A DNA stretch of 64,000 bases, from positions 64,252-128,251 of the forward strand of contig CAZJQQ010000005.1 of NCBI GenBank assembly GCA_964548075.1, written 5' to 3'. The translations under genes and the position numbers were made by a program. The notes beneath the pieces are model-generated. The model did no database searches. It was not told the origin of the DNA and worked only from the letters and a program-made list of their open reading frames with translations. Positions 9,189 through 29,134 of the stretch are shown one piece after another (position 1 is the first letter of the stretch; each line of letters opens with the position of its first letter). Origin of the DNA: an uncultured Clostridia bacterium (lineage in GTDB: Bacteria > Acidobacteriota > Blastocatellia > UBA7656).

Positions 9189-12050
<2,862 letters not shown>

Positions 12051-20512: not shown

Positions 20513-21337
20513 TTACCGCCGGGGGGGCGTTGAGATCACTCGAAAATGGTATTTGCCGGCCTCTTCGAATTGCCCGCCCTGGTCTAACCCGCTGAGCTTG
20601 ATTTGGTAATCGCCCCTGACAAGTAGCCTGGCGCGGAAACTCAAGCCGACCACCCGTTCATTTGCCAGTGATTCGGGTTTCAGCTCATCCGCCGAGAAGA
20701 CTTCGCGCCCTTCATCCGTTTGAACGACTGCCCGGTAGCTCTGATACTCGTCTCGCGACAATTCAAGGTGTAGCCGCACAGTGGATATGTCGGTTGCAAT
20801 TGTTACCCTCTTGATTTCGCCGCTATCCCTCTCCAGGCCGGGCCTCAAAGTAATCGCAAGCGTAGGCCCTTCCGGCAATTGATCGCGCAGCCATACATTC
20901 CTGACGATCAGCCATGAGGCGCCGAAGAAGACAATTACTAATGCTGCCGCAAGGGAAAGGCCAAGCAGCGGCTTTTGAGCGTGGAGCGAAGCGGGTATGA
21001 AGCGCTTCCAGACGAGAGGTCGCTGGCCGTTGACTGTTGCGGGCTTTACGTCTGCGAGCGGCGCACCGTTGACGTATCTGTGTAGGGCTTCGGCAAAGCT
21101 CAGCCGCTGTCTTCGCTCCGAAACCGCCAGAAAATGTTGATTGAATCTCTCTCGCTCAGGAGCGGACAAGTTGCCGTGAACATAGCTGTCTATTAACTCG
21201 TCCTCTGCAGCTGACAATTCCTCAAGGTACTCGTCATCAATCAGCAGTTGCTTTTCCAGGCGCTCCTGTTCCTCCGGCTCAAGCCACCCCAGCAGGTACC
21301 GCCTCAAACGGTCTTCAGTATCATGGCCATATTCCAT
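20513..21337 (-). CDS. single-pass membrane protein with anti-sigma-factor-like topology
   Basis: 274 aa: an about 110-aa cytoplasmic helical acidic N-domain (LRRYLLGWLEPEEQERLEKQLLIDDEYLEEL...), one TM (LLGLSLAAALVIVFFGASWLIV), and an about 135-aa extracytoplasmic domain. Lies downstream of the ECF-peptidase-CHAT genes. Confidence 0.35.
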   Translation of the reverse strand: MEYGHDTEDRLRRYLLGWLEPEEQERLEKQLLIDDEYLEELSAAEDELIDSYVHGNLSAPERERFNQHFLAVSERRQRLSFAEALHRYVNGAPLADVKPATVNGQRPLVWKRFIPASLHAQKPLLGLSLAAALVIVFFGASWLIVRNVWLRDQLPEGPTLAITLRPGLERDSGEIKRVTIATDISTVRLHLELSRDEYQSYRAVVQTDEGREVFSADELKPESLANERVVGLSFRARLLVRGDYQIKLSGLDQGGQFEEAGKYHFRVISTPPRR

Positions 21338-21553: not shown

Positions 21554-24500
21554 TTAAGCCGCGCGTTGCTTCTTGATCAGGACCCGTCTTGCTGCAAAAA
21601 GACTGACTATCAATATGGCGGTGAATGCCGCGGCCAGTATTGCCAGATAATACTCGCCTCTTTGCGGGCTTTGGCCGGCGTCGATTTCTCCCTTGTACTC
21701 ACCCTGCAAAACAAAAGGCGCCCAGAAATAGGGCGATTGCCACCGCTTCTGTCCCCACATGGTTATCTGCGCCTGGCGGAGCGCTTCTGCTGGAGACTTC
21801 TTCTCAGCAAGCATTTCCTGGTAGAAATGTTTTATCAACTCGGCCGTGGCCTCGTCATCAACCTTCCACAGGCTGGCCATTACGCGCGCCGCGCCTGCAT
21901 ACATGAATCCGCGAGTAAGCCCTATCAGACCTTCGCCTTTGATCGGCTTGCCTAGAGCTGAGTTACAAGCACTGAGCACGACCAAATCGGCCGGAAGATC
22001 TAAGTTGTATATGTCGTTCAGCCGCAGGAACCCATCTTGTGGCTGGCCATCCTTGTCGAATAGGGATAGCACCAGACCGGATAGCTCCGGGGTGTCATTG
22101 TCAAGAATTCCATGGGTAGCGAAATGAATGATGCGGTACCGGCTCAATTCGGGGCCGGTAGCAAGGCCCTTATTGGCCTCGAAGCCGATCGCCTTCAGGC
22201 TCAGCTTGCCGGGCGTTACAGCCATGATCGCGTTCGCCTCATCCCGTGAAGCAAACAAGCGCGGAATGCCTCGGCCGTCGCCCGCAACGCCAACATCGCG
22301 CAAGGCCCGGTGTGCGTCCGCACGGTTCTGCTCATCGGAGTCCTTAGCAATCGTCTCCTTTGCCGCACTCAGGCGCGAATCATCCCTTTCAAAGACCGGA
22401 TCAGCAAACACGGCCAACATGTTTGAAGCAGGCTGACGGCTTTCAATCTTGTTGCGCAATGTCGCCAGCGTCGAGGCAGATGGTTGGTAAGTAACCTGAT
22501 GATCGACCATCAGGGGAACCCGACTATCGTCCGTCGATTGGGGATCCGGCAGGGCGCCGAAAGGTATGTATTGCAACGCGCCGTCAGCGACGACTATCAA
22601 CTGCTTATTTTCGAGTTGCGCGGCGGCCGGGCCAAGTAAAATTTTGCTCAGCGAGGATGCGCTTTGCCAGTACTTCGTCTCAGATTCGTTGAGTCGCGTC
22701 TGGCGTTGTTCAAAGGACTCCCCCTCCACGAACCGGGGGGTAGTTAGCCTGTCCCGCACCTGATTGGCTAAAGCTTCTACCTCCGCGCGGCGTGGGAGCT
22801 CATAACTGGCAATCTCCGATTTAGTCACCGCCCAAAGATAGCTTCTCTCTTCACCCAGTGAATACTCCAGAAGGAGCGCGTTGTCATCCAGGGCTTGCTG
22901 TTGAATTTCTTGCAAGCTCAAGGTGTGTAGTTGCGTCAGCGCGGCATATTGCGGGCTCTTTGATTTGATCTGCCTTTCTACCTCATCGCAGTTTGTCGTG
23001 ATCTCCTGAATCTCTCTAGCCAGAGCTGCCGCGTCTTCTTTATTGTATTGACCGGAGAGCAAACGCATCTGACGTTCGGTTTTACCCTGGAGCGTTCGTT
23101 GGAGCGAGCGCTTGCGTTGCAGCAGCGCCGGATCTACTCCTTGAGAAATGTCAGCGTGAGCTTCCTCCAACATATCCAGCAGCGCTCTTGCCCTCGCTCG
23201 CTCGCTTGTGTCAAGAGCGAGGATATCGAATCCATGGCTTGGGCTGTCTTTGTGCAGTCTCATTAACAAATCGATATACAGTTCGTAATACTGGTGCGCG
23301 GTGGCGAAGTATGTGACCCGCAGATCCCGGCTGGCGACTTTCGTGCGCAGAGATTCTGCAATCGTGACAGCCTCCTCGATCCGCGCGCGTGCTTCTTTGA
23401 GATCGCCCAGGTCGCGCTGGACGCGCGCGATGTTGTAAAGCGTTGAGGACTCACCCGACGGATCAGCCGCTACACGGTTAAGCGGTAGCGCCCGTCTATA
23501 GTAATCGAGCGCCCTTTTCTTTTCGCCCGAACCTTCATAGAGCTTGCCCATGTAGTTGAGTGTGTAAGCCTCATAGCGCTGATCCTGTCCGGCGCGCCCG
23601 AGGTTTAGCGATTGCTTGTAGCAGGCAAGTGCTTCGGCATTGTCGCCTAGGGAGGCATAAATCAGCCCCATGTCGCGAAGGGTCTTTGCCTCTTGGCGCG
23701 GCATTCTAAGGGTGCGGAACAAAGAAAGGGCTGATTGACAATGGTTGAGCGCTACCTGACTCTCTCCTAGTGAATAGTGTGTTTCGCCAATGACCCTCTC
23801 CGCCTCTGCTTCTCCCCATCGGTCATTGGTCTCTTTGAAGAGGCTTATTGCCTGATCATAGTATTTGATCGCCGTGCGCTTCTCACCGACACCATCATAG
23901 ATAGAGCCGAGCCCGCCAAGCACAGTCGCTTTCAGTTTACGAGCATCGATCGATTGCAGAATCTCTAACGCCTTAAGGAACAGATCGAGTGCCTGCTGCT
24001 TCTCGCCTAATTTGGTTTGTAGATTTCCAAGAGCCCTAAGTGCAATAGCCTCGCCATGACGATCATGTGCATCACGGCTCATAGCTAGCGCCCGCTCATA
24101 CGAATCGAGTGCTTTAGCAACGTCGCTTAACTCTATGTACGTATAGCCAAAGCTGACCAGCACCCTGATCTCTCCCTGGCGATCATTCGACTTCTGATAA
24201 AGCTGCATCGCTTCTCGCAAATACCAAAGCGCTTTCTGTAAGTCGCCGAACCCGTAGTAGGCCTCGCCGATGGTATGGAGCGCCGGCGCTTCTCCCGCAA
24301 CGTTGTTCGTGAACCGACTTAATTTCAAAGCGAGGGTGGCAGCTCTTAGGGCCTTCTGGCTATCCCCGAAATCGAAATGAAGATACCCGATGTCATTAAG
24401 AACATCTACCTCTCCACGCCTGTCATTCAGTTTTTGGCTGAGTGAAAGAGCTTGGTTGTAAAAGGTGAGGGCTTTCTGATACTCATCTAACGACTGATAG

Positions 24501-25207
24501 ACTCGTCCTAGACCTCTGAGCATGTAAGCTTCTGCGTGGCGGTCTCTCGCAGCCCGGAAGTAGCCTTGTGCCTTTTCATACATCTGGATGGCTTTATAGT
24601 TTGATTCCGTTCTCCATTCGGCCCTCAATCGCTCACCTTCTGCAAAGGCATTTTCACCAAGAATGGTTTCCCGGTCTCGTGTACTCGCCCGCCTGAGGGC
24701 TTCGAGCGTAACTCGGTAGTGTCCTTTAATTGTCCCCTCTTTCCGCGCGCTCACCTCTAACCGATACTCCCCAGAGACATCAGCAATGACGGATACAGGT
24801 ATCAGTCCGCCCGGATAGCAATTGAATTCAACGTGTTTCTGACGGCTCGGATAATAGAGGGCCACGCTGGCCTCTATTCCCCAGCATTCAATGACCGCAC
24901 GCCCGTACTGGCCTGAGGTCAAAGTGATTTGATAAGAGTGAGTCTGACTCGGCGAGATTTCCCGCTCGATAACCTTGTGCAGCCCGATAAAGGGAGCGTT
25001 GCTCGCTGCATCTACCAACCGACTTGACCCTGCCTTCGAAGGGGCAATCCCTCGCGGCACGACTACCCCGAGGCCAGCAGGAGACACAGCCGATATCCGA
25101 CCGAGCACCAATAGAGCCAGGGCGAACAAAGAAAGGTGTCGAGACAGACCCCTAGTAAGCAAGGGCCCCGTCATCATGAAGCCCCAAGATCTAAAGCGTT
25201 TTTTCAC
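21554..25207 (-). CDS. TPR-repeat CHAT-domain (caspase-like clan CD) protease, membrane anchored
   Basis: 1217 aa with a signal peptide, a PPC-like beta-sandwich, about 12 TPR units, a coiled coil, and a CHAT domain (His in RIIHFATHG, Cys in VVLSACNSALG). C-terminal TM YLAILAAAFTAILIVSLFAARRVLIKK. GTG start overlaps the upstream ORF by 4 nt. Confidence 0.85.
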   Translation of the reverse strand: MKKRFRSWGFMMTGPLLTRGLSRHLSLFALALLVLGRISAVSPAGLGVVVPRGIAPSKAGSSRLVDAASNAPFIGLHKVIEREISPSQTHSYQITLTSGQYGRAVIECWGIEASVALYYPSRQKHVEFNCYPGGLIPVSVIADVSGEYRLEVSARKEGTIKGHYRVTLEALRRASTRDRETILGENAFAEGERLRAEWRTESNYKAIQMYEKAQGYFRAARDRHAEAYMLRGLGRVYQSLDEYQKALTFYNQALSLSQKLNDRRGEVDVLNDIGYLHFDFGDSQKALRAATLALKLSRFTNNVAGEAPALHTIGEAYYGFGDLQKALWYLREAMQLYQKSNDRQGEIRVLVSFGYTYIELSDVAKALDSYERALAMSRDAHDRHGEAIALRALGNLQTKLGEKQQALDLFLKALEILQSIDARKLKATVLGGLGSIYDGVGEKRTAIKYYDQAISLFKETNDRWGEAEAERVIGETHYSLGESQVALNHCQSALSLFRTLRMPRQEAKTLRDMGLIYASLGDNAEALACYKQSLNLGRAGQDQRYEAYTLNYMGKLYEGSGEKKRALDYYRRALPLNRVAADPSGESSTLYNIARVQRDLGDLKEARARIEEAVTIAESLRTKVASRDLRVTYFATAHQYYELYIDLLMRLHKDSPSHGFDILALDTSERARARALLDMLEEAHADISQGVDPALLQRKRSLQRTLQGKTERQMRLLSGQYNKEDAAALAREIQEITTNCDEVERQIKSKSPQYAALTQLHTLSLQEIQQQALDDNALLLEYSLGEERSYLWAVTKSEIASYELPRRAEVEALANQVRDRLTTPRFVEGESFEQRQTRLNESETKYWQSASSLSKILLGPAAAQLENKQLIVVADGALQYIPFGALPDPQSTDDSRVPLMVDHQVTYQPSASTLATLRNKIESRQPASNMLAVFADPVFERDDSRLSAAKETIAKDSDEQNRADAHRALRDVGVAGDGRGIPRLFASRDEANAIMAVTPGKLSLKAIGFEANKGLATGPELSRYRIIHFATHGILDNDTPELSGLVLSLFDKDGQPQDGFLRLNDIYNLDLPADLVVLSACNSALGKPIKGEGLIGLTRGFMYAGAARVMASLWKVDDEATAELIKHFYQEMLAEKKSPAEALRQAQITMWGQKRWQSPYFWAPFVLQGEYKGEIDAGQSPQRGEYYLAILAAAFTAILIVSLFAARRVLIKKQRAA

Positions 25208-25386
25208 AACACGCGCTTTGTAGGGCGGCCCTTAACGCCACGGCAATATTGAGCGAGCACCGTCACGTCTTCGGTCGAGCCAACCCGTTTCATCTCTTTG
25301 AGGTCGGTAAAGCCGTTGTAGTCGAGACCGGCATCGCCGACCATGTATACCATCACCGTCCAAGATCTCTTGTCCACGGGATTCAA
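25204..25386 (-). CDS. 60-aa ORF homologous to the N-terminus of the adjacent C11 peptidase (duplicated fragment; possible gene remnant or small regulator)
   Basis: RSWTVMVYMVGDAGLDYNGFTDLKEMKRVGSTEDVTVLAQY aligns with ADWTVMVYLAGDNNLTDECTYSLTEMKKADSGNRVNIFAQF of the upstream gene. It lacks the catalytic His/Cys and overlaps both neighbours by 4 nt. Confidence 0.4.
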   Translation of the reverse strand: MNPVDKRSWTVMVYMVGDAGLDYNGFTDLKEMKRVGSTEDVTVLAQYCRGVKGRPTKRVL

Positions 25387-26936
25387 GCCTTCCTCGCCGG
25401 AGCTGCCTTCAAGAACAATTTCTCCAACCCTCTAATTACATCTTCCTTCCTCTTTATACAATCATCTGGGAACGCCACGATTGGCGGGTTCCTCATGCTC
25501 TGGACAGGGTTCCCCCCCCTGTCATCAACCTTCCTATCATCAACCTTCCTAAATGTTCTTGCGCCGTTCGGGGTGTTGGTCCCATCTGACGCTCTAAATG
25601 ATCCTTTGCCGGGTGACCTTCCAGCTAAGAGTGCGGTGGCTGCAGCGTTGATAGCGCTAAGACGCTTGGATCCTACCGCGTCAACGGTGCGATCTTGTTT
25701 CCCATTTTCAGATTGCCTGCGCGGCAGACGCGGTTCTCGGCGCGTTTCTTTCGTATAGATCTCAAGGAACTTCGCCCACCCTGAGTCTTTAGCAAAATTG
25801 AGGTTCCCGTAACCTGGAGTGACCTCGGCCCACGGAAAATAGATCGAGACGCCATGGGAATACTGAAAAGCCGGACCGCTGTAGCATGACTTTAGAACGA
25901 AATGCGACTCAATAAACTCCATAACCTTACGGCACGCGTAAGGAACGCCCCCGGCGTCGTAGCGTTCTTGCAAACAGTCACAGAAATCGTAGAGATCAAC
26001 GAACATTTCGCCGTTATACGATTGAGCTTCCCAGTGCGCCAGCACGATAGCATCCTTGAACCTGTCCTTTGTCTTAGCGTCGGTTAGTTCTGCGCTAAGC
26101 GCCCCGGCTAGGTTCTTGACGCGGTTCTTCAGTTTCCTAGCGTCGCGCAGGTTCATCGCCGATGAGTCCGCTGACAAACCGCCCAATGAGTAGTCCGAAT
26201 AAAAATTAACGAACTCTTCGACGATAGCAGTCGCCAACCTCGACTGTACGCTCTGTCCCCGTGCGAGACTCTGAACCTGCGGGGTTGCCTTGGAGAGTTC
26301 GCCTAATCTGTCAAAAATCTGGCGGTAAGGCCAGCCAGCGGCGGGACTGTAACTTTCGCAGCCCACGAGGATCTGGACGTAGTCCCCAAGTTCGTAACAT
26401 ATCTCAGCCATGCTCATCAGGCATACGTCCATTCCGACAATGTCGATCACCAACCCATTCCCGTCTTTGCCATTGTGGTCTTTGTGCACTCTCTCAAAAA
26501 CCTCCTTCAATTTAAGAATCGTGAGAGAGCCGCCCGAACTCTCATCTTTCAACAAGAAGTTCCTTTCGATTCCGCCACCGTGTCCCGCTAGAACTACCAT
26601 ATAGTGATCCGCCGGACATTCGCCGATGCAGAACTTGATAAAGTTAATTAGCGTCTCCGGATCGCCCGTGTCGGTATCAGGGGACGAACCGATGATGTCC
26701 ACCGCCAAGCTTCCGGATTCACCATCTTTCGCGATCTTGTAGCGCTGAGTTGGGATAAGGGGGTCCTTAGGATCGAACTGCGCAAAGATGTTGACGCGAT
26801 TGCCAGAGTCAGCCTTCTTCATTTCAGTAAGGGAATAGGTGCATTCATCTGTAAGGTTGTTGTCCCCGGCAAGGTAAACCATTACCGTCCAATCAGCGTT
26901 CGCTGTTGATGCAGTTGAATTCCGAATCTTTGCCAT
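25383..26936 (-). CDS. clostripain-like cysteine peptidase (family C11, clan CD), cytoplasmic
   Basis: WTVMVYLAGDNNL N-terminal strand, catalytic His in VVLAGHGGG and Cys in GMDVCLMS (His-Gly / D-x-C-L-M dyad). No signal peptide; basic, disordered C-terminal tail containing a KVDDRKVDDR tandem repeat. Confidence 0.75.
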   Translation of the reverse strand: MAKIRNSTASTANADWTVMVYLAGDNNLTDECTYSLTEMKKADSGNRVNIFAQFDPKDPLIPTQRYKIAKDGESGSLAVDIIGSSPDTDTGDPETLINFIKFCIGECPADHYMVVLAGHGGGIERNFLLKDESSGGSLTILKLKEVFERVHKDHNGKDGNGLVIDIVGMDVCLMSMAEICYELGDYVQILVGCESYSPAAGWPYRQIFDRLGELSKATPQVQSLARGQSVQSRLATAIVEEFVNFYSDYSLGGLSADSSAMNLRDARKLKNRVKNLAGALSAELTDAKTKDRFKDAIVLAHWEAQSYNGEMFVDLYDFCDCLQERYDAGGVPYACRKVMEFIESHFVLKSCYSGPAFQYSHGVSIYFPWAEVTPGYGNLNFAKDSGWAKFLEIYTKETRREPRLPRRQSENGKQDRTVDAVGSKRLSAINAAATALLAGRSPGKGSFRASDGTNTPNGARTFRKVDDRKVDDRGGNPVQSMRNPPIVAFPDDCIKRKEDVIRGLEKLFLKAAPARKA

Positions 26937-27051: not shown

Positions 27052-27609
27052 TCACCCAACAGGTGCCTGATTCAGGCAGCTCTCAACGCACAATTGCAAG
27101 CTCGCTCTTATTCGGTGCATACGTATCCTCAACGCATTCGGCGCTATCCCGAGCCGATCAGCAAGCTCCCTTCTGTGATCTATCTTCACTCGTTTCTCTT
27201 CCTGGTAATACTCCAAAACCAACTGCCGATTCTCAGCCGGGAGCCTGTCCATGCATACCTCCAGGCATTCGTACTCTCGTTCCTTCTGTTGAGGGGTGTC
27301 AGGCGCTGGCGTGGGGAGCGGCGGAGGACCCTTCTTCACGTGCTCGAGGTGAACGTTACGCGCCACGCCGTAAAAATAAAGCGCCGGATCGCCGATGTAT
27401 GAATCCGCCAGCTCTTGCATCTTCCTGATGACCCGGTTGATCGTCTCATCTGCGAGCTCTTCGCTTACAGAGCACCCGCGGCAGGCGAAGATCCTTATGA
27501 GCCTTCGGCGAATATCTTCGTACTTCTTTCCGGCTAGCTCGCGGTCAGGGTCGAGCCACCTGAGAAAATTGTCGAAGGCATCCTGAGTAATGTCCCACGG
27601 TCTCTTCAT
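27052..27609 (-). CDS. ECF-type RNA polymerase sigma factor (sigma-70 regions 2 and 4)
   Basis: Internal start MKRPWDITQDAFDNFLRWL...; region 2 (ADETINRVIRKMQEL...YFYGVARNVHLEH) and region 4 HTH (RQLVLEYYQEEKRVKIDHRRELADRLGIAPNALRIRMHRIR). The N-terminal 139 codons of the track ORF lie in the divergent intergenic region and look non-coding. Confidence 0.75.
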   Translation of the reverse strand: MKRPWDITQDAFDNFLRWLDPDRELAGKKYEDIRRRLIRIFACRGCSVSEELADETINRVIRKMQELADSYIGDPALYFYGVARNVHLEHVKKGPPPLPTPAPDTPQQKEREYECLEVCMDRLPAENRQLVLEYYQEEKRVKIDHRRELADRLGIAPNALRIRMHRIRASLQLCVESCLNQAPVG

Positions 27610-27961
27610 CGAATTGCCAGCCGTTCGAGTTTTTGCTTGGTAAACCGCCTGAATGTGGCAGGGAGTTTGGTCCTGCCTAAGCCCAGCGACTTTCGCCGAG
27701 AGGTCACTCAACACAACCTGGTCGCGGCTGAATGTATCACGACCCACCGGCCACGGCAAAACCTTTTTTGTAGCATATACCCTAGCCCTGAGCTTCGCCC
27801 GAGGAGGGAGAATGTGCAATCCGGTTTGCCACGGTGTATGGCGCTTTACCGACAATCTGCGCAACAGGAATCTGACCGACCAAAGCGAAAGCGCCAGTTT
27901 CCCATCTCGCTTGCTTGGGGTACTCTTCTTGAAACCAACCAAACTCAAGGGGGACCGTTCA

Positions 27962-29134
27962 GTGGCGAAGACTATTGGCATCTTGACTGGAGGCGGCGAT
28001 GTCCCGGGCTTGAATCCCTGTATCAAAGCCGTCGTCTACCGCGCGATCGATGAGGGCTACGAAGTGCTCGGCATTCGCCGCGGTTGGGGCGGCTTGCTGC
28101 ACTTTAACCCTTTGGAGCCCGAGAGCTTCTCGAAGCATTTCATGCCCCTGGACAAGCAAGCGGTTCGCACCATCGATCGCACCGGCGGAACGATCTTGCA
28201 TACCAGCCGCACTAATCCTTCAAGAGTGAAGCTAAAGGACGAGCCCGACTTCCTGCGAGACCCCGCGCACCCCAAGGCCGAAGAAGCAGACCCGCGACCC
28301 CGGGACTTCACACCTCACGTGCTGAAAAACCTCGAAGACCTCGGCATCGAGATACTCGTCCCGATCGGCGGCGACGACACACTCAGCTACGGCGAGCGTC
28401 TCCATCGCGAAGGAGTCGAAGTCATCGCCATACCGAAGACAATGGACAACGACGTGTTCGGCACCGACTATTGCGTCGGCTTCAGCACGGCGGTCACTCG
28501 AAGCGTGCAGTTCATTCATCAGCTTCGAACCAGCAGCGGCTCGCACGAGCGCATCGCAGTCGTCGAGTTGTTCGGACGCAACAGCGGCGAAACCAGCTTG
28601 ATCAGCTCTTACCTGGCGGGAGTCGATCGCGCGCTGATTTCTGAAGTGCCGTTCGATCCTGAACGGCTGGCAGAGCTGGTGATGCAGGATAAGCGAACCA
28701 ACCCGAGCAACTACGCGATGGTGACCATCAGCGAAGGCGCGCACATGGTAGGCGGCAAAGTGATCGAGTACGGCGAGGCTGATGCCTACGGCCATCGCAA
28801 GCTCGGCGGCATCGGCTTGATAGTAGGCGAAGCGCTCAAGAAGCTTACTGGCGAAGACATCGTTTATCAGCAGATCGCTTATTTGATGCGCTCGGGAGCG
28901 CCGGACGCGGTCGATCTGATGGTGTCGGTGAACTACGCGCACATGGCGATGGACCTGATCCTCGAAGGCGTGAGCGGGCGCATGTGTGCGTTGCGAGAAG
29001 GAACCTACACGCACGTTCCTATCAGCACGATCACCAGCGGCTTGAAGCGAGTCGACGTTGACGAGCTCTATGACGCCGAACAGTATCTGCCCAAGGTTCG
29101 AAGGGTGCTGGGCAAGCCGATGTTCCTGTACTGA
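27962..29134 (+). CDS. pfp: pyrophosphate-dependent 6-phosphofructokinase
   Basis: GTG start after RBS aagggggac; motifs [24 protein letters not shown] (Asp in the GGDG position) and PKTMDNDV (Lys) favour PPi-dependence. Confidence 0.8.

Follow-up and report, generated by a model that had tools for sequence, protein, structure and literature searches.

How do two clan CD-type cysteine proteases work together when they are encoded side by side and only one of them carries signals for export? The question is raised by a four-gene module in a 64,000-nucleotide stretch of contig CAZJQQ010000005.1 (the window), from an uncultured bacterium assigned to the Blastocatellia (Acidobacteriota). Read along the minus strand, the module encodes a divergent extracytoplasmic function (ECF)-like sigma factor, a C11 (clostripain-family) peptidase, a tetratricopeptide repeat (TPR)-CHAT protein, which is the third of the four and our main subject, and a single-pass anti-sigma-like protein. 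The original prediction placed the CHAT protein outside the cytoplasm and left two ways of reconciling it with a C11 peptidase that has no signal peptide: either the topology is wrong, or a signal crosses the membrane via the anti-sigma-like protein. Our analysis favors the second, as the CHAT, sigma and anti-sigma genes remain neighbors across several gene orders, whether C11 is present or not. The best explanation for the gene's product is a predicted exported TPR-CHAT cysteine protease, and we tentatively place it in a relay resembling that of DdvA from Myxococcus xanthus.

Domain anatomy of the TPR-CHAT protein

The open reading frame (ORF) and its translation agree exactly with the originally predicted coordinates. 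An alternative ATG start at 25177, corresponding to M11, was chosen by gene callers for the database version of the protein (P0001, 1207 aa), and the signal peptide is intact from either start; residue numbers here refer to the GTG-start protein. The features of the gene, including a pre-peptidase C-terminal (PPC)-like domain and elements taken from AlphaFold2 (AF2) models, are as follows.

21554-25207, minus strand: TPR-CHAT gene, 1217 codons from GTG, with Pfam CHAT and TPR matches
25076-25207, minus strand: predicted signal peptide, residues 1-44, candidate cleavage after A40 or A44
25100-25135, minus strand: hydrophobic core (h-region) of the signal peptide, residues 25-36, LSLFALALLVLG, uncharged
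24683-24982, minus strand: PPC-like beta-sandwich, residues ~76-175 (strands 79-173), from AF2 and Foldseek
23345-24682, minus strand: TPR array, residues 176-621, 22 regular helices forming 11 pairs, from Pfam TPR_12 and AF2 secondary structure
22892-23329, minus strand: helical linker, residues 627-772, with four long helices (627-750) in AF2 secondary structure
21698-22879, minus strand: CHAT caspase-like fold, residues 777-1170, from PF12770 and Foldseek matches to separase, DdvA and Csx29
22112-22114, minus strand: catalytic His1032, in ATHG context
21965-21967, minus strand: catalytic Cys1081, in SACNS context
21590-21652, minus strand: predicted C-terminal transmembrane helix, residues 1186-1206, YYLAILAAAFTAILIVSLFAA, Kyte-Doolittle hydropathy 2.61 over 19 residues
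21557-21589, minus strand: basic tail, predicted cytoplasmic, residues 1207-1217, RRVLIKKQRAA, net charge +5

Pfam, hydropathy and AF2 bear out the domain order that had been read from the sequence, with two corrections of detail: the TPRs, estimated at about 12, form 11 pairs of helices in the AF2 model, and the segment read as a coiled coil appears there as four long helices. The Pfam CHAT family (PF12770) matches residues 849-1170 with 234.4 bits against a cut-off of 24 (E 2.4e-69), TPR families (TPR_12 and related) match over about residues 190-760, and Pfam has no match within the first 190 residues. An AF2 model of residues 46-1217, built from a 73-sequence alignment, has a predicted local distance difference test score (pLDDT) of 86.3 and a predicted template modeling score of 0.80. 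It begins with a disordered linker of ~30 residues and continues through an eight-stranded beta-sandwich, the TPRs, the long helices and the CHAT domain to an isolated C-terminal helix. The His1032/Cys1081 dyad is invariant across the 73-sequence alignment. Comparing the full model with the PDB using Foldseek, we found separase, DdvA and Csx29 as the top matches (E 2e-17 to 1e-14), with the two DdvA structures, 8rw5 and 8rot, at E 2e-15 and 1e-14; a PDB sequence search with the full protein returned TPR proteins only, and CHAT relatives surfaced solely by fold comparison. As modeled, the protein fits the TPR-CHAT architecture of the separase/craspase type, with a clan CD caspase-like protease domain.

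A database search recovered 550 homologs at E<=1e-20, mainly from Pyrinomonadaceae, Blastocatellia and other Acidobacteriota and also from cyanobacteria, whose annotation goes no further than 'CHAT domain-containing tetratricopeptide repeat protein'. An exact-sequence look-up of the window protein returned no record, and there are no paralogs within the window besides a relic of a C11 gene, described below.

The N-terminal beta-sandwich was also modeled in isolation from 51 aligned orthologous domains (pLDDT 94.9, eight strands). Its Foldseek matches include the PPC domain of Bacillus anthracis collagenase (5sv5; TM-score 0.61/0.67, root-mean-square deviation 3.2 Å), the C-terminal jelly roll of Tk-SP (3afg/9ues; TM-score ~0.62) and the ColG collagen-binding domain (1nqj; 0.57-0.61), and PliG and GOLD domains score about as well. 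The Pfam PPC model has no match to the window's own sandwich at E<=1, but PF04151 matches 23 of the 51 orthologous domains (best E 1.2e-7). These matches, together with the shared fold, make the original label 'PPC-like' a fair one for the family, even though the window copy goes unrecognized. The PPC domains of secreted proteases (5sv5, 1nqj, 3afg) have the same beta-sandwich fold and are C-terminal, whereas the window domain is N-terminal in the mature protein. In the genome survey described below, the domain is missing from the CHAT partner at seven C11-linked loci (L005, L008, L009, L010, L015, L017 and L018), so the module can do without it. Homology between this domain and the external domain of the anti-sigma protein was considered and rejected (hhalign probability 4%, the similarity being confined to the final two strands).

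The window's sandwich has two cysteines, Cys130 (24818-24820, minus strand) and Cys108 (24884-24886, minus strand). Both are present in 10 of the 51 orthologous domains, the second only in eight, the first only in none, and neither in 33. A disulfide between Cys108 and Cys130 is possible and would suit an oxidizing compartment.

Predicted export signals and membrane topology

The CHAT protein contains only two hydrophobic segments, one at each end. At the N-terminus, six Lys/Arg residues precede the 12-residue core, and an analysis of hydropathy and charge points to two candidate cleavage sites, ISA↓V and SPA↓G. This core is too short for a stable transmembrane helix, and we read the segment as a cleavable signal peptide. 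At the opposite end, AF2 shows the C-terminal region as an isolated 35-residue helix. Both topogenic signals obey the positive-inside rule, which argues that the bulk of the protein is outside; a cytoplasmic bulk would require the translocation of two strongly basic ends.

The N-terminal signal is conserved. A simple heuristic, with 18 C11 proteins as controls, called signal peptide-like N-termini in 90 of 119 CHAT homologs (87 of these also with a -3/-1 site) and in none of the controls (0/18). The remaining 29 homologs are mostly truncated gene calls, with start sites placed within the first domain or at the hydrophobic core. Textbook cleavage sites are present in many homologs (VTA↓QE, VAA↓QN, AIA↓QE), and in a Myxococcota ortholog (L018) a lipobox, LLIGIAVAC, replaces the plain signal peptide. 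The C-terminal anchor, by comparison, is specific to a clade of 27 CHAT homologs, in which a variable linker of ~14 residues is followed by a helix of ~21 residues and a Lys/Arg tail of ~12 residues with a net charge of +3 to +9. In most of the rest of the family the protein stops at ...YYWAAFVLQGEWK, which would make it soluble in the periplasm. We therefore consider it very probable that the bulk of the window protein is extracytoplasmic and C-terminally tethered, as had been proposed; this well-supported prediction draws on the two topogenic signals, the conservation of the signal peptide, the L018 lipobox and the precedent of DdvA.

In several close orthologs (P0005, P0008 and P0009; L001/L003, 8001-8120), a twin-arginine-like motif (RRFRPF/L, RRRFLPF) stands before the hydrophobic core. 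From this motif, twin-arginine (Tat) export of a folded protein is possible for some close orthologs. The N-terminus of the window CHAT protein has no RR pair.

The sigma, anti-sigma and C11 partners

The three other genes of the module lie on the same strand, with the following features.

27052-27636, minus strand: divergent ECF-like sigma factor, 194 aa from ATG 27636
25383-26936, minus strand: C11 (clostripain-family) peptidase without a signal peptide, PF03415 119.9 bits against a cut-off of 25.8
25482-25550, minus strand: C-terminal tail of the C11 peptidase, two RKVDD repeats and an SMRNPP motif, read from sequence
25204-25377, minus strand: probable relic of a second C11 gene, 57 codons in the C11-CHAT gap (175 bp), its TGA overlapping the CHAT GTG start (GTGA)
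20513-21337, minus strand: single-pass anti-sigma-like protein, 274 aa, with an N-terminal zf-HC2-type domain and a beta-rich C-terminal domain of ~125 aa
20903-20968, minus strand: transmembrane segment of the anti-sigma-like protein, residues 124-145, from hydropathy

The sigma factor scores 36.3 bits with TIGR02937 (cut-off 42.9) and 23.7 bits with Sigma70_r4_2 (cut-off 25.7), and has no PDB sequence match. Its orthologs, at 42-59% identity, adjoin CHAT genes in more than 12 loci. ECF54, the sole ECF group that reviews link to CHAT neighbors, is actinobacterial and lacks an anti-sigma factor, and we have not equated the window's sigma factor with it. Upstream of the sigma gene, in the stretch 27637-27975, the listed start of a divergent PFK ORF is 27653, only 16 bp from the sigma start, and the PFK domain does not include the first ~107 residues of this ORF. 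Translation of PFK probably begins further downstream, and 27637-27975 is the probable location of the sigma promoter.

We assign the anti-sigma-like protein to its family because the zf-HC2 model (PF13490) matches all 10 of its orthologs (best E 5.1e-10) and because JGI has named some members 'anti-sigma factor RsiW'; the window copy, at 17.4 bits, falls short of the 22.2-bit cut-off. Among the 10 aligned sequences, His68 of the H-x3-C-x2-C zinc ligands is invariant, and the Cys positions are occupied by S/P/A and E/R in all 10. The external domain of ~125 residues is conserved. A PDB profile search with the family gave a weak match only, to the Mycobacterium tuberculosis anti-sigma chain 3hug_B (E 0.2).

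The C11 peptidase has the motifs AGHGG (H119) and MDVCL (C172) and matches clostripain in the PDB (9cip, E 3e-11). Its lack of a signal peptide, noted originally, extends from the window copy to all 18 of its locus orthologs. A WTVMVY-type first-strand motif is found in 112 of 120 C11 homologs, and the leader that precedes it has a median length of seven residues. At the other end of the protein, C11 homologs (P0121-P0240) carry pentapeptides repeated in tandem, in up to about 10 copies, every one of which contains R or K and most of which contain M (for example, DRMTS, DRMAT, DRIVN and DKMGS); the window has just the two RKVDD copies. After the repeats, the motif S-[MILV]-[RK]-N(-x-P) is found in all 120 homologs. 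JGI labels some C11 proteins 'pentapeptide MXKDX repeat protein', and that repeat family includes Met-rich periplasmic peptides that scavenge HOCl under ECF control (PMC8315932). As candidate roles, the C11 tail could provide sites for autoprocessing, act as a docking motif or form a module sensitive to oxidation.

The 57-codon ORF between the C11 and CHAT genes corresponds to the N-terminal ~55 residues of C11, with 54% identity to L020, 53% to L019 and 40% to the window C11 (blastp). It is probably the leftover of a replaced C11 paralog, which fits the window's rearranged gene order.

Conservation of the module across genomes

Scanning one genome per species with a C11 query, we obtained 18 loci, in which a signal-bearing TPR-CHAT gene follows C11 wherever the contig continues. 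The module is present in about a dozen loci from Pyrinomonadaceae, Blastocatellia and Acidobacteriaceae, in three gene orders. Nine loci have the full order C11, CHAT, sigma, anti-sigma (L001, L003, L007-L010, L013, L016 and L017), and in L005 and L014 this order is interrupted by the contig end. The CHAT stop codon overlaps the sigma start in L005, L008, L009 and L017. An Acidobacteriaceae contig (L021) has the order sigma, anti-sigma, C11, CHAT. Other loci, of more distant CHAT homologs, lack C11: L023 and L024 encode CHAT together with sigma and anti-sigma proteins of the same families (blastp), L004 has a confirmed sigma factor adjoining a zf-HC2 gene, L025 has a zf-HC2 gene and an unconfirmed sigma candidate, and the cyanobacterial L026 has CHAT without sigma or anti-sigma. 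Because the trio persists without C11, we take the conserved core to be the predicted exported TPR-CHAT protein with its sigma and anti-sigma factors, to which C11 was added in one large clade. The C-terminal anchor tends to co-occur with C11: of 13 C11-linked CHAT genes, 11 encode it, against none of seven CHAT genes that lack C11 (Fisher p = 5e-4, without phylogenetic correction).

Two Pyrinomonadaceae contigs have, ~3-4 kb beyond the downstream end of their first module, another such pair, made up of a divergent second C11 gene (26% identity) and, after it, a TPR-CHAT gene with an export signal (L008, 18363-20711; L010, 19447-21548). These second pairs indicate that the C11-CHAT pair is itself a recurring unit.

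Just upstream of the C11 start, a subclade whose CHAT protein lacks the PPC domain has a leader of ~45 nt, GACYCCAGG..CTGAA-loop-TTCAG..CTCCCAWTGGAGGT, found in L005 (~9900-9975), L006, L008, L009, L010, L011, L012 and L017 (~9945-10025) and absent from the window. Its 5' arm can pair with the Shine-Dalgarno sequence GGAGG. The leader shows no covariation because its sequence is nearly invariant, and Rfam had no match to the module or to one relative's leader.

The window module is flanked by unrelated genes: PFK, a MoaA-like radical SAM protein, a TetR regulator and a molybdopterin oxidoreductase. A generic scan for sigma-70 promoters and terminators found sites no more frequently than in shuffled sequence, and the PADLOC defense models gave generic TPR matches only.

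Comparison with known CHAT systems

DdvA is a single-pass anti-sigma factor whose ~900-residue periplasmic part is a TPR-CHAT protein, and its authors proposed that its CHAT domain makes the site-1 cut in DdvA itself, before RseP acts (PMC11506125). With the window module it shares a TPR-CHAT protein with a His-Cys dyad, predicted to be periplasmic here, as well as membrane attachment and genetic links to a zf-HC2-type anti-sigma domain and to a sigma factor of ECF type. The parts are joined differently. DdvA holds its anti-sigma domain, transmembrane segment and TPR-CHAT in one polypeptide with an N-terminal anchor, whereas the window module has a separate 274-residue anti-sigma protein, without CxxC zinc ligands, and a CHAT protein with its own signal peptide and C-terminal anchor and no anti-sigma domain. 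The window module also has an extra PPC-like domain and a C11 gene, and the two CHAT proteins are ~14-15% identical in structural alignment. The module looks like an unfused relative of the DdvA system that shares its predicted compartment.

Craspase, the type III-E CRISPR system of Cas7-11 with the TPR-CHAT protein Csx29, Csx30 and CASP-sigma, offers a second comparison. There, Csx29 cleaves Csx30 and CASP-sigma is released. In both craspase, which the model matches structurally (8eey_B, E 1.4e-14, Foldseek), and the window module, a TPR-CHAT protein is genetically linked with a partner that sequesters sigma and with an ECF-like sigma factor; cleavage of that partner, known for craspase, is proposed for the window module. 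Craspase is cytoplasmic and RNA-guided, whereas the window module has no cas genes nearby. The possibility that the CHAT protein is Csx29 itself was rejected, as it scores 16.7 bits with NF041237 against a cut-off of 300 and cas genes are missing near the module.

In Haliangium ochraceum, a SAVED-CHAT protein activates a second caspase-like protease (PCaspase), with a sigma factor (PCc-sigma) adjoining (10.1101/2023.06.23.546230). This cascade and the window module each combine two clan CD-type cysteine proteases, one of them CHAT, with a co-encoded sigma factor. The components of the SAVED-CHAT cascade are all cytoplasmic, it senses cA3 by means of a SAVED domain, and its second protease is a member of family C14 rather than C11; the window's two proteases, by contrast, are predicted to occupy separate compartments.

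A proposed relay and competing explanations

With somewhat less than even confidence, we propose that the exported CHAT protein, the sigma factor and the anti-sigma factor form an unfused DdvA-like relay. The cleavable signal peptide would carry the CHAT protein across the cytoplasmic membrane, and its periplasmic part would comprise the PPC-like sandwich, the 11 TPRs and the CHAT domain. The C-terminal helix would act as a stop-transfer segment that retains the protein, with the Arg/Lys tail in the cytoplasm; because the linker ahead of the helix has ~14 residues, the protease domain would be held against the outer face of the cytoplasmic membrane. The TPR and PPC-like part would read a periplasmic cue and the CHAT domain would become active, clipping the external domain of the anti-sigma protein (a site-1 cut), which would be expected close to the conserved L-T-P-G-L-x-R segment. 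The clipped protein would then be open to intramembrane proteolysis, which would free the sigma factor. The C11 peptidase would act in the cytoplasm, either as a sigma-factor output itself or on cytoplasmic parts of the system, and would not be a direct substrate of CHAT. The specific role of CHAT as the site-1 protease of the anti-sigma factor, for which DdvA is the precedent, is more tentative still than the relay as a whole.

Several observations weigh against this relay. Among 83 anti-sigma homologs (220-373 aa), none is fused to CHAT, so there is no Rosetta-stone support for the pairing. The sigma factor and the window's anti-sigma protein score just under the curated hidden Markov model cut-offs, and no bipartite ECF promoter upstream of 13 modules is common to all of them. 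DdvA controls an adjacent CBASS/CRISPR defense island, and unlike the DdvA locus the window module has no adjoining defense genes. The strong and repeated adjacency of C11 and CHAT, seen also in the second pairs of L008 and L010, is unexplained by a DdvA-like model. The predicted topology itself rests on hydropathy, the charge rule and conservation. Finally, synteny cannot separate a regulator of the sigma factor from its target.

This last point opens the main competing explanation, which we regard as unlikely though not negligible: CHAT and C11 would be outputs of the sigma factor, and the beta-rich C-terminal domain of the anti-sigma protein itself would detect the cue. The operon would then be induced by sigma, CHAT would be an envelope protease for turnover, competition or defense, and C11 a separate cytoplasmic effector. 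ECF sigma factors commonly adjoin their target genes, and gene context alone does not distinguish these from their regulators (PMC7826278, the ECF reclassification). The anti-sigma protein's conserved external domain also speaks for such a role, as do the numerous paralogs that combine a signal peptide with TPR-CHAT (the 550 matches), of which cyanobacterial ones such as that of L026 have no sigma factor nearby. Set against this, the CHAT/sigma/anti-sigma trio has remained together despite several rearrangements, CHAT and sigma are translationally coupled, and in every characterized CHAT-sigma system the protease acts upstream of the sigma factor. A different way of fitting C11 into the picture would retain the cut outside and add a second arm: CHAT would cleave the anti-sigma protein in the periplasm, while its transmembrane helix and Arg/Lys tail would couple it to C11 in the cytoplasm. 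The distribution of the anchor (11 of 13 C11-linked CHAT genes versus 0 of 7 C11-free ones) hints at such a two-compartment caspase-like relay. Clostripain-type C11 enzymes prefer Arg at P1, and on that basis one may speculate that the tail makes contact with C11 across the membrane. We judge this arrangement improbable; if true, a single envelope cue would drive both a transcriptional arm, through sigma release, and a cytoplasmic proteolytic arm.

The original prediction had presumed a cascade between CHAT and C11. In its simplest form, CHAT would cleave the C11 tail at the S-M-R-N-P-P motif and thereby activate C11, as in the SAVED-CHAT to PCaspase cascade, which provides a precedent for activation of a second caspase-like protease. 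The high conservation of C11-CHAT adjacency, including the divergent pairs of L008 and L010, and the presence of the S[MILV][RK]N motif in all 120 C11 homologs are what such a cascade would lead one to expect. It would also need both proteases in one compartment, by non-classical export of C11 or with a cytoplasmic CHAT protein, and here the sequences contradict it: the first-strand motif of C11 begins after a median of seven residues, and no C11 homolog has a signal peptide. Their CHAT partners consistently have one and, in this clade, a positive-inside C-terminal anchor as well, and the module contains no secretion-system genes. Finding no evidence for a direct cascade, we consider it very unlikely. 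The least likely of the explanations concerns the anchor, which would be a cleavable sorting signal of the exosortase or sortase type, with the protease released or surface-attached. A helix and basic tail at the extreme C-terminus do have the general shape of such signals, and the C-termini of orthologs give weak matches to LPXTG_anchor, PVV-CTERM and PEP_CTERM (E 0.003-0.1). However, these matches cover the helix and basic tail only, not the signature motif; across the 27 anchored homologs no conserved or signature motif is found in the ~14-residue linker ahead of the helix, and the window C-terminus matches none of the NCBIfam sorting-signal models (PEP-CTERM, LPXTG, MYXO-CTERM and similar).

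Implications for sigma factors paired with CHAT proteases

Recent work on craspase and DdvA has brought TPR-CHAT proteases to light as switches for the release of ECF-type sigma factors. The module described here is new as an unfused form of the known periplasmic TPR-CHAT, anti-sigma and ECF sigma theme, and we found no description of the C11/CHAT/sigma/anti-sigma four-gene module in the literature. The pairing of a predicted exported protease with a cytoplasmic C11 peptidase that bears an unusual repeat tail is unexplained by current models. The locus shows that a partnership of a TPR-CHAT protein, predicted to be exported, with an ECF-like sigma factor and an anti-sigma factor is widespread in soil Acidobacteriota with its parts as separate proteins, and in such an arrangement the proposed site-1 cut could be assayed directly in trans.

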